Made by a program: the position numbers and the translations under genes. Of a stretch of 64,000 bases of DNA, positions 6,242-8,611 are shown one piece after another (the stretch's first letter is position 1; every line of letters starts with the position of its first letter). Source of the DNA: Pocillopora damicornis. Taxonomy: Eukaryota. The DNA lies in assembly GCF_003704095.1 (NCBI RefSeq), contig NW_020845652.1, forward strand, positions 1-64,000, in the 5' to 3' direction. Under the pieces are notes generated by a model. The model was not told the DNA's origin, did no database searches, and saw only the letters and a list, made by a program, of their open reading frames with translations.

Positions 6242-8611
6242 TTATGATGACACAGGGAAAGTCATTTCCATCTTATCACCAAGTCCGCAAATTATTGTCT
6301 GACCCCTTTTCACTGGAGAACCTCCCTCTGGAGTTCCTGTCAAAATCAAATCCCCTTCCTCCAATGTCATGTAACGGCTGACAAAACTTATTAAATGAGG
6401 TATCTTATAAATCATATCCTGTGTATTTCCATCTTGCTTCATTTCCCCATCAACTTTCAACCATAGTTTCACATTGTTTGGGTCAGTAATTGCTGATTTG
6501 GGTATAAATTCACTGACTGGTGTTGCTGTGTCAAAACCTTTGGCAAGTGCCCATGGGTAGGTAAGTTTTATGGCTTCATTCTGGAAATGGAAGTTACAAT
6601 GCAATGACTTAGAAAAAAATTACTCATCAGAGGCCTAGTTAGGATAATTACTTAACCCTTTAACTCCCAAGATATGATTGTTAATTCTCCCCTCATCTGC
6701 TATTTGCTTGTAGAGGATTTGATGTTAGATCAATGTAACAGCCTATCCTTGATGATAAGTTTGAGTATTCACATTACCTGTTTGTTGGATAGCATATGGA
6801 TATTAAGAAGAGAACTAACATGTTAATCACTTCTGGGAGTTAAGGTTAATCTAAAATGCAAAATGATTCAAAGCACACTACTCTTGCCTCTGCTGGGTAA
6901 AGTTTGCTATTCTTTGAAGGTTTAGTTACAGATTTGAATAACGTGCAGTCTACGTCTTTAGCTACTCATAGGCCTTGACCAAATTCACAAAGTTTTTAGA
7001 ACTTTTGAAGTAGCATGATGTGACAGGCTGAAAACAAGCAGGGAGATGGATGTTGGGGTAGTTATAAACTGAATATGGAAGCGATCTTCACTGTAATGAA
7101 AACTACTTATTTTTTTATAAGCAGAAGTGAATTTAAGACTTGAAAAAAATTCAGGTCCTTATGGGATTTGAACCCATGACCTCTGCAATACTAGTGCAGT
7201 GCTCTACCAACTGAGCTAACAAGCCAACTGGGAGCTGTTCCTTAAGTTGGTTCCAAATAAACCCATGAAGTGATAAATAAATGACTGTAAATATATAAAA
7301 ATCATATATGTAACTTCATATAAATTAATTACTGTGAAGATCACTTCCACATTCATTTCTTTATCTACAGTTAACATCTATAATTTTCATCTGTTTAAGT
7401 CATGTAGTTATAACTTATTGTCAGGCCTTCTCTTTTTGTTGGGGGGGTGAAGGGTCATAAAAGTTCAGGTCTCTCTTCTCTCAACAGAAACTTTTTCAAT
7501 GCTGAACTTTCACACAATCTCCTAAAAAAATGCTTAATTGCACATTTGGTGAGTACAATCTCTGTTTTGTCCAGCAAACAGGCTCACATAGACTTACTTT
7601 TTCAACTATAAGATCAAAATCAGTCATATCCAAAGCCAGGGTATACCCCCCTACATGATCCATGGCTTGAGACTCTGAAATAGATTTGCCAGTTTTGCCA
7701 ATCACAACTCCAAGTTCTACTTCATGATAAATCTGATCCCGGCCCACTGGGATCTGTTGGAAGAGTTGAAAAAAAATGATTCAAAGACAAACATACACTA
7801 GTAGATCATATTGTTTGACCAAAAAATCTCTGAACATGTAGATATGCAAGGAAGTGCACAACTATGTTTTAGCACCCTCTTAGGATTATGAACTGTTTTG
7901 GATGCAATTTAATTCACATGTAACACATGCTAAGAGCTGACTTCCAACATTCTTAATTACATGGGTGGTTCCATATAGTTAAAAGAACATGATGATGCAA
8001 ATCCCCTGTTCTGAACATGGTGATGCAAACCCCCTGTTCTTATTGGCTACTTAAGGTGCAAAATTCCCTCTATGGATAGCGACACGACATAATTAAGTGG
8101 TTGTTTTAAACAAAAATGTCTATAACTCTGGCGTTAAACGTGATCACCTCGCTTTCTGAGTGAACTTGGAAGACTTGGTCGGTTGAAACAAGTAACTATT
8201 AAGTTCTTACTTTCTCTCAAAGGGATGCCACGTAGTAAACCGTGTAGGGAATCCCCAATCTGAGACCGAACTGATTAAAAACCAAAACACATCATCGCTA
8301 GTCAATTCCTAATATCTTTTCAAATCTCGATCCTACTGATACCTTTTACATTATCTCGAGAACTTACCTTAATTACCCCCTCTGGACTCAAATATGTTGA
8401 CGGTGGTTTTAAAAAAATTAGGGGATCTTGAGCAGGAGGGGGCTGTTGTGGCGATCCGTTGGGCCTAAATTAAAAAAGAAGTCTACAAATGAGACACTGA
8501 AAGGGGAAAAAATAAAAATAAAAACGAAACTAACCTGTAGTTTTTACCCACGCCGATAATTTTGCGTCCAAATTCCACAAACCTTCTGAGATCTCGTGCT
8601 TGAGAAGCCAT
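6242..8611 (-). CDS. FAHD1-like tandem paralogue B with altered active site, about 222 aa; exons 8611-8535, 8464-8368, 7753-7598, 6580-6242
   Basis: Open frame across four exons with canonical splice sites; exon 2 is 97 nt as in copy A. MASQARDLRRFVEFGRKIIGVGKNYRPNGSPQQPP...FLKP...YHEVELG...DMTDFDLI...PWALAKGFDT...LTGTP. Confidence 0.9.
6652..6849. mobile_element. piggyBac-type MITE, family 2 variant
   Basis: TTAACCCTTTAACTCCCA...TGGGAGTTAAGGTTAA. Confidence 0.8.
7070..7403 (-). mobile_element. tRNA-derived repeat (SINE-like) with inverted flanking segments, in intron 3 of FAHD1-B
   Basis: Minus strand 7225-7152 reads GGCTTGTTAGCTCAGTTGGTAGAGC...GGGTTCAAATCCC (Pol III A and B boxes) with an imperfect cloverleaf. 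7070-7100 is inverted at 7325-7355, and 7281-7315 at about 7366-7403. A related fragment lies at 29404-29444. Confidence 0.75.

Follow-up and report, generated by a model that had tools for sequence, protein, structure and literature searches.

The window analysed here, a 64,000-nucleotide stretch of the Pocillopora damicornis genome, contains two FAHD1 genes in tandem, both on the minus strand, with copy B upstream of copy A. The coding sequence of copy B (669 nt) is spread over four exons whose three introns are all GT..AG, and it encodes 222 amino acids with no internal stop, bearing out the open frame of about 222 residues described by the first-pass annotation. Its product matches P0188 (Pocillopora damicornis XP_027046375.1) in every residue. 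Copy A, with three exons, also encodes 222 amino acids; the two proteins are 68.5% identical and have similar N-termini (RDLRRFVEFGRK is common to both). The third intron of B lies inside an altered R106-Q109 helix (human numbering) and is missing from A. The features are as follows.

8535..8611, minus strand: copy B exon 1, residues 1-26, with a short Arg-rich N-terminus, GVGKNYR and a GT donor; protein as in P0188
8368..8464, minus strand: copy B exon 2, with the new lid, FLKP and K45 (human K47); 7753/8368 joint in RNA contigs
8425..8463, minus strand: replaced lid of copy B, residues 27-39, proline-rich, as long as that of copy A and with no His-x-x-Glu dyad
7598..7753, minus strand: copy B exon 3, with the HEVE ligands E69/E71, D100 and the altered R106/Q109 segment; joined to exon 4 in X5 and X8 contigs
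7598..7630, minus strand: remodelled pocket helix D100-K110 of copy B, with Phe for R106, a 3-residue insertion and a nearly invariant K110
6581-7597, minus strand: B-specific intron directly after the D100-K110 helix segment, at a position shared by ortholog loci L014 and L015
6242..6580, minus strand: copy B exon 4, with K124 (human K123), TGTP, Gly for V196 and the stop codon
5967..6241, minus strand: copy B 3' UTR as far as RNA contigs extend (contigs 5967-6580, runs X1 and X8; contig ends are not transcript ends)
4791..4876, minus strand: copy A exon 1, canonical FAHD1
4602..4698, minus strand: copy A exon 2, with the H30/E33 dyad in a canonical lid; exon 2-3 joint in one X1 contig
3830..4315, minus strand: copy A exon 3, with HEVE, DMTARDLQ, LAKG and TGTPEGV

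A search of the coral's own genome with the last exon of B returned the tandem pair, B and A, and no other match. A Pfam search of the genome found a gene on contig C2 with a canonical H..E lid and DVSARDWQ, and an exon on contig C2137; judging by their motifs, we take these to be FAHD2-like and FAH-like, respectively. Just downstream of copy A and convergent with it lies a STING gene (window positions 1392-2357, plus strand; Pfam STING_TM and STING_LBD), whose open reading frame spans 141 of the 182 positions of the ligand-binding domain; a run of N follows at about 2658-2757.

RNA contigs from four runs, belonging to four studies, were placed on positions 3600-8900. The joint between exons 2 and 3 of copy B (7753/8368) is present in contigs of three of the four runs, and exons 3 and 4 are joined in X5 and X8 contigs through the donor at 7598, a junction that bears out the 3-residue insertion; an earlier GT that would delete the insertion is unused in the same contigs. 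No joint between exons 1 and 2 was seen among the RNA contigs listed for the four runs, and this joint is supported instead by its GT..AG sites, by P0188 and by the contiguous Logan-listed proteins P0187 and P0190. Alternative acceptors that would restore a canonical B were also considered, and both upstream AGs before exon 2 lead into stops. All four coding differences in B among those listed from the RNA contigs are synonymous. The contigs of copy B are deeper than those of copy A in all four runs, but contig depth cannot rank genes and we set this comparison aside. High-copy repeats in the introns and intergenic DNA around copies A and B (window positions about 3600-3830, 5500-6000, 6650-6850 and 7140-7320) pulled in thousands of unrelated contigs from the RNA runs.

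Active site and predicted fold of copy B

In FAHD1, Mg is held by E71, E73 and D102, K123 is the proton source for ketonisation (K123A is inactive) and the H30-E33 dyad places the hydrolytic or catalytic water. Q109, which is linked to R106, controls the conformation needed for C-C cleavage and decarboxylation; mutating the Q109 equivalent of Cg1458 removes about 98% of decarboxylase activity (PMC8398924 and PMC7116474). R106 is further described as holding the pocket structure through E73 and Q109 (PMC7116474). PMC10825186 gives enol-oxaloacetate tautomerisation as the main FAHD activity, about 2x10^4-fold above decarboxylase, and reports a D102A R106A mutant as tautomerase-dead, with under 0.1% activity.

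We numbered residues by alignment to human 6FOG, with which the numbering of the first-pass annotation agrees, and compared nine B orthologs, eight A proteins and 16 outgroup proteins. The catalytic core is kept throughout B: G24, N26, K47, E71, E73, D102, W119, K123 and T192 are present in all nine orthologs, the predicted metal ligands (E69, E71 and D100 in B's own numbering) and the lysines K45 and K124 (equivalents of K47 and K123) are invariant in 9/9, and no metal ligand or proton-shuttle lysine has been lost. The motif changes from A to B quoted earlier, and the retention of HEVE, FLKP, LAKG and TGTP, were all confirmed.

Around this core, residues that are otherwise fixed have been replaced. 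H30, E33, R106, Q109 and V196 are invariant in A and in the 16 outgroup proteins wherever the site is covered, the valine after TGTPxG being so in all eight A and 16 outgroup sequences. In B, position 25 is Lys in eight orthologs and Arg in one, position 30 is Asn in six (the window's copy among them) and His in three, position 33 is Pro in eight and Ser in one, position 106 is Phe, Leu or Ile and never Arg, and position 196 is Gly, Asn, Ser or Pro. The 3-residue insertion in the R106-Q109 helix allows Q109 to be aligned to either I107 or K110, depending on gap placement. Of the four losses first proposed (H30, E33, R106 and Q109), those of E33 and R106 hold in all nine orthologs, that of H30 fails in the three that carry His, and Q109 is replaced, by Ile or Lys, under either gap placement. 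K110, next to the insertion, is Lys or Arg in 9/9 B while neighbouring positions vary, and D103, R63 and Y118 are invariant in the nine B and different in the compared A. A and B have no residue in common in 28 alignment columns, of which 11 belong to the lid (human 29-41) and three to 105-109. The lid itself has the same length in both copies, 13 residues from the Arg after GKNY/GRNY to PLIF, indicating that it was replaced rather than deleted; what had been read as a lost lid is therefore a lost HxxE dyad in a new lid of equal length, which is itself conserved (dN/dS 0.05-0.11). The loss of H30, E33 and R106 may on its own have rendered B catalytically dead.

The mixed beta-sandwich fold is intact. 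Copy B matches the PF01557 profile with 183.8 bits (cut-off 23.9), and its AlphaFold model (pTM 0.83) superposes on human and mouse FAHD1 with TM scores of 0.82-0.85; the best PDB matches are FAHD1, with a Foldseek E of 2e-25 against the human protein. The lid region of the model contains nothing but a 3-residue helix, and pLDDT falls to 52-69 in the blocks covering residues 21-50 and 101-130, exactly those that are remodelled, so the model does not settle the shape of the pocket.

A model of A and B with two Mg reached an ipSAE of 0.92 against 0.01 for the best control, with contact agreement between runs of at least 87% and partner pLDDT of at least 90. Of solved complexes, 51 of 78 reach the ipSAE mark, as do 2 of 108 mismatched pairs (for eukaryotes, 71 of 105 solved complexes and 2 of 126 unrelated pairs), and close relatives pass the dimer test by likeness in 10 of 12 cases. 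At the predicted interface, 24 of 33 residues are identical in A and B and 22 are invariant in the nine B. Since FAHD1 homodimers have been solved (dimers are mentioned in PMC7056447) and relatives pass by likeness, the score shows a retained dimer surface rather than a heterodimer in cells. The A/B heterodimer suggested at first pass is thus structurally possible, but its passing score may reflect likeness to the solved homodimers.

Descent and selection in corals

B-type proteins have named records in Pocillopora, Stylophora, Desmophyllum, Oculina, Orbicella (partial), Porites, Montipora and Acropora. Outside Scleractinia there was no named match; unnamed Logan, JGI and ENA matches carry no taxon, and corallimorpharians lay outside the search. 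Quick trees were used throughout. In one of 53 proteins, the B clade (SH-aLRT 99) and the A clade (SH-aLRT 92) were both recovered. In another, built after removal of the trait columns and with FAHD2 and FAH rows outside the tree, the sisterhood of A and B had an SH-aLRT of 97. In the tree of 53 proteins, Porites, Acropora and Montipora group together within the A clade, as do Desmophyllum and Pocillopora, and the B clade likewise contains a Porites/Acropora/Montipora group. The duplication is thereby shown, as judged from these trees, to be older than the Complexa/Robusta split.

The stem of B (0.23) is longer than that of A (0.055) in the quick tree of 53 proteins, whereas identity across the coral clades is similar for the two (77-79% for B, 78-81% for A). 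Within B, the lid region retains 16-19 of 19 residues across the clades (84-100%), and the 102-119 segment is 52-62% identical compared with 72-94% in A. Ratios of dN/dS were computed by simple counting (NG86 with JC correction; dS 0.7-1.5) with the window's B as reference. Of 17 loci found, 12 were analysed (seven B orthologs, two of a diverged B-derived copy and three A-type or outgroup) and five distant ones (32-58%) were left out. Copy B has a dN/dS of 0.04-0.10 over the whole gene against the seven ortholog loci, and of 0.05-0.11 over lid codons 22-40 against the four loci that cover the lid. These comparisons of tree and alignment show that B changed rapidly along its stem and was strongly constrained thereafter, with the replacements concentrated at the lid, the R106-Q109 helix and V196, a pattern of neofunctionalisation. 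Because B is also transcribed and spliced, this constraint supports the original view of a targeted remodelling of the active site in an otherwise conserved fold.

Several further observations concern the coral genes. The B-then-A order is seen in Pocillopora, Porites and Acropora, in five fused gene models (P0001, P0186, P0207, P0208 and P0220; 355-444 aa) from five coral assemblies. A true B-A fusion protein was rejected: the junctions differ among the five models, none has a Logan source and no B-to-A RNA joint occurs among the contigs listed for the four runs, so we take these models as artefacts that are likely annotation errors. The Acropora B models P0221, P0219 and P0222 have an N-terminus 13 residues longer than other B, which, if real, could shift targeting. 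Other corals carry a further diverged B-derived copy (L016:1863-2207 and L017:1340-1684) that has an acceptor where B carries its extra intron and is about 70% identical to exon 4 of B; the L017 copy has an in-frame stop, whereas the frame is uninterrupted in the proteins P0418 and P0419 of this type. We found no link of B to oxaloacetate handling or symbiosis, and Desmophyllum, a deep-sea coral that we take to be symbiont-free, retains B.

Proteins lacking H30 and R106 beyond corals

The remodelled-FAHD1 pattern, as read from alignments, is not unique to corals. Joint loss of H30 and R106 with an intact core occurs in proteins of Mya, Asterias, Menopon and Corethrella, and a profile search of 1.84 billion representatives added Schistocerca, Timema, Trichoplax and unnamed records of the same type. 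We aligned 330 proteins (190-310 aa or in the base alignment); 285 of them have the core and cover the lid, and these reduce to 214 representatives at 85% identity. Both HxxE and R106 are present in 181 of these and neither in 29, with R106 only in three and HxxE only in one; these counts do not represent natural frequencies, as H30/R106-less proteins were enriched by a profile built from them. R106 is accordingly missing in 29 of 32 HxxE-less members and kept in 181 of 182 that bear HxxE, 178 of which also keep Q109. The coupling extends to seven independent pairs on well-supported branches (median sign-test p 0.016). Replacements of R106 are non-polar (M/L/I/F/V/A) in 22 of 29, and without a core filter all five core residues (K47, E71, E73, D102 and K123) are found in 35 of 38 HxxE-less representatives.

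AU tests retained a clade shared by B and the other H30/R106-less proteins (p 0.12 and 0.19); a single origin is thus not rejected, and an independent origin of B is favoured by the tree rather than demonstrated. Members from insects (P0247, P0262, P0138 and P0031), Asterias (P0136), Mya (P0032) and Trichoplax (P0254) are annotated as FAHD1 or oxaloacetate tautomerase, the latter label being, on several H30/R106-less proteins, an automatic database name and not a test result. It is conceivable, if rather doubtful, that these proteins form a repeatedly evolved FAHD1-derived class in corals, insects, starfish, clam and Trichoplax that drops the His-Glu lid and R106 together and acts in metabolite repair, as tautomerases for aromatic or branched 2-oxo acids, with coral B as its best-documented member. 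If so, many insect 'FAHD1' proteins would belong to the H30/R106-less class and hence be misannotated.

Possible activities and comparison with known systems

Copy B is, on its active-site features, a non-canonical FAHD1, a real and conserved variant within a known family. Our leading interpretation, which we hold at a little short of even confidence, is that this transcribed, conserved tandem paralog of stony corals is likely still an enzyme, neofunctionalised as a keto-enol tautomerase that uses Mg and a lysine and acts not on oxaloacetate but on a 2-oxo acid with a non-polar tail. With the metal core intact and the lid and substrate-gripping residues replaced, a different keto acid is likely. 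E69, E71 and D100 would hold Mg, the 2-oxo-carboxylate of the substrate would chelate it as in FAHD1, and K124 would shuttle a proton between the enol oxygen and C3. Copy B would thus keep the half of the site that grips the 2-oxo-carboxylate, together with the proton shuttle, and would have lost the half serving the distal carboxylate and C-C cleavage: without the His-Glu-water dyad, acylpyruvate hydrolysis is expected to be lost, and without the R106/Q109 network that positions the C4 carboxylate of oxaloacetate, so is decarboxylation. Phe, Leu or Ile at position 106 could allow an aromatic or branched side chain to fit, making phenylpyruvate, 4-hydroxyphenylpyruvate, indolepyruvate or a branched-chain keto acid candidate substrates, and oxaloacetate repair would be left to copy A and the FAHD2-like gene.

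Several points weigh against a tautomerase of this kind. R106 has a structural role through E73 and Q109, so its loss may abolish catalysis, and the dead D102A R106A mutant includes R106, although D102A alone could explain its deadness. K110 is a possible carboxylate binder in place of R106, which would favour a dicarboxylic rather than a non-polar substrate. The coupled loss of HxxE and R106 is also expected for non-catalytic ligand binders, and no FAHD enzyme with a non-polar 2-oxo acid as substrate was named in the literature searched.

The first-pass annotation had left the choice between a pseudoenzyme and a new activity. We favour a new substrate over a pseudoenzyme, because the core is kept in 9/9 B and in 35 of 38 HxxE-less members. 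It is unlikely that copy B serves as a subunit with little or no catalytic activity, binding a keto-acid ligand and modulating copy A within an A/B heterodimer: B has lost four substrate or catalytic positions, the A/B model far outscores its controls with an interface largely as in A, and the B-then-A order is kept in gene models of three coral genera, but the retained dimer surface would be needed equally by a B homodimer of the kind solved for FAHD1, a pure regulator would have no need of the invariant metal ligands and catalytic lysine (K123), and similar proteins occur in unrelated lineages.

Slightly less probable again is subfunctionalisation, in which B would remain an enol-oxaloacetate tautomerase, use K124 and K110 in place of R106 and have lost only its side activities as hydrolase and decarboxylase. 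FAHD enzymes act chiefly as tautomerases (PMC10825186), an activity assigned to K123 and not to the lid dyad (PMC8398924), K110 is consistently basic in B and the automatic names of several H30/R106-less proteins point the same way. Copy A and the FAHD2-like gene, however, already have a canonical site, and the near-universal retention of R106 (181 of 182) and Q109 (178) in HxxE-bearing members makes the canonical network look tightly required for oxaloacetate.

We consider it somewhat more improbable that B acts on a new substrate by another metal-dependent reaction of the FAH family, whether decarboxylation, dehydration or aldol-type cleavage, through residues such as D103, R63, Y118, K110 or N/H28. 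The first three of these residues are fixed in B and differ in A, and the family spans dehydrations, decarboxylations and isomerisations; B nonetheless lacks the His-Glu-water triad common to its C-C-cleaving members (both statements from bioRxiv 10.1101/2023.06.26.546597). Asp at 105 is also found in canonical FAHD1, for example in Nematostella. Finally, it is highly improbable that B is a duplicate undergoing decay or neutral drift, or that it is an artefact of assembly or splice calling: a more diverged B-derived copy at another coral locus (L017) does have a stop codon, but B itself is neither unexpressed nor neutral, as had been contemplated, and its spliced RNA, silent coding differences and dN/dS of at most 0.10 rule out a pseudogene or neutral drift, with an identical named protein record and orthologs in both coral clades.

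Returning to a tautomerase for a different 2-oxo acid, FAHD enzymes have recently been shown to be universal oxaloacetate-repair tautomerases, and a paralog with an intact core and a rebuilt substrate end points to a second reaction in animal metabolism, possibly one that repairs a further 2-oxo acid. Copies A and B form a natural experiment: they are 68% identical, with their differences concentrated in three active-site segments, so that swaps can map the roles of the lid, R106 and Q109. As both copies are named alike in databases and five gene models are fused, coral and insect metabolic reconstructions probably mis-assign these genes. Copy B apparently has not been described previously: neither this coral paralog nor the H30/R106-less type appears in the literature searched on coral FAHD1, Scleractinia or symbiosis and acylpyruvase, H30A/E33A and insect FAHD1, a body that mostly excludes subscription papers.

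Among known systems, B is closest to the mitochondrial enzyme FAHD1 itself (oxaloacetate tautomerase, decarboxylase and acylpyruvase; human 6FOG, mouse 6SBI), with which it shares the PF01557 fold, the metal/lysine core and, by prediction, the dimer surface. It differs from these structures in R25 (Lys), H30 (Asn/His), E33 (Pro/Ser), R106 (Phe/Leu/Ile) and V196 (Gly/Asn/Ser/Pro), and in its proline-rich lid, the 3-residue insertion in the Q109 segment and the extra intron. FAHD2A/B (OAT1), E. coli YcgM, B. subtilis YisK and C. glutamicum Cg1458 belong to the same family and have the same metal site; enol-oxaloacetate tautomerase activity has been shown for FAHD2, YcgM and YisK (PMC10825186), and YisK, unlike B, is described as having the lid histidine and the same active-site residues (bioRxiv 10.1101/2023.06.26.546597). 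Copy B derives from coral FAHD1, and the genome has a separate FAHD2-like gene. The proteins of Schistocerca, Timema, Menopon, Corethrella, Asterias, Mya and Trichoplax resemble B in that they keep K47/E71/E73/D102/K123 but have lost both H30 and R106, often with changes at Q109 and V196 as well; unlike B, they often keep E33 and have neither the coral proline-rich loop nor the 3-residue insertion.
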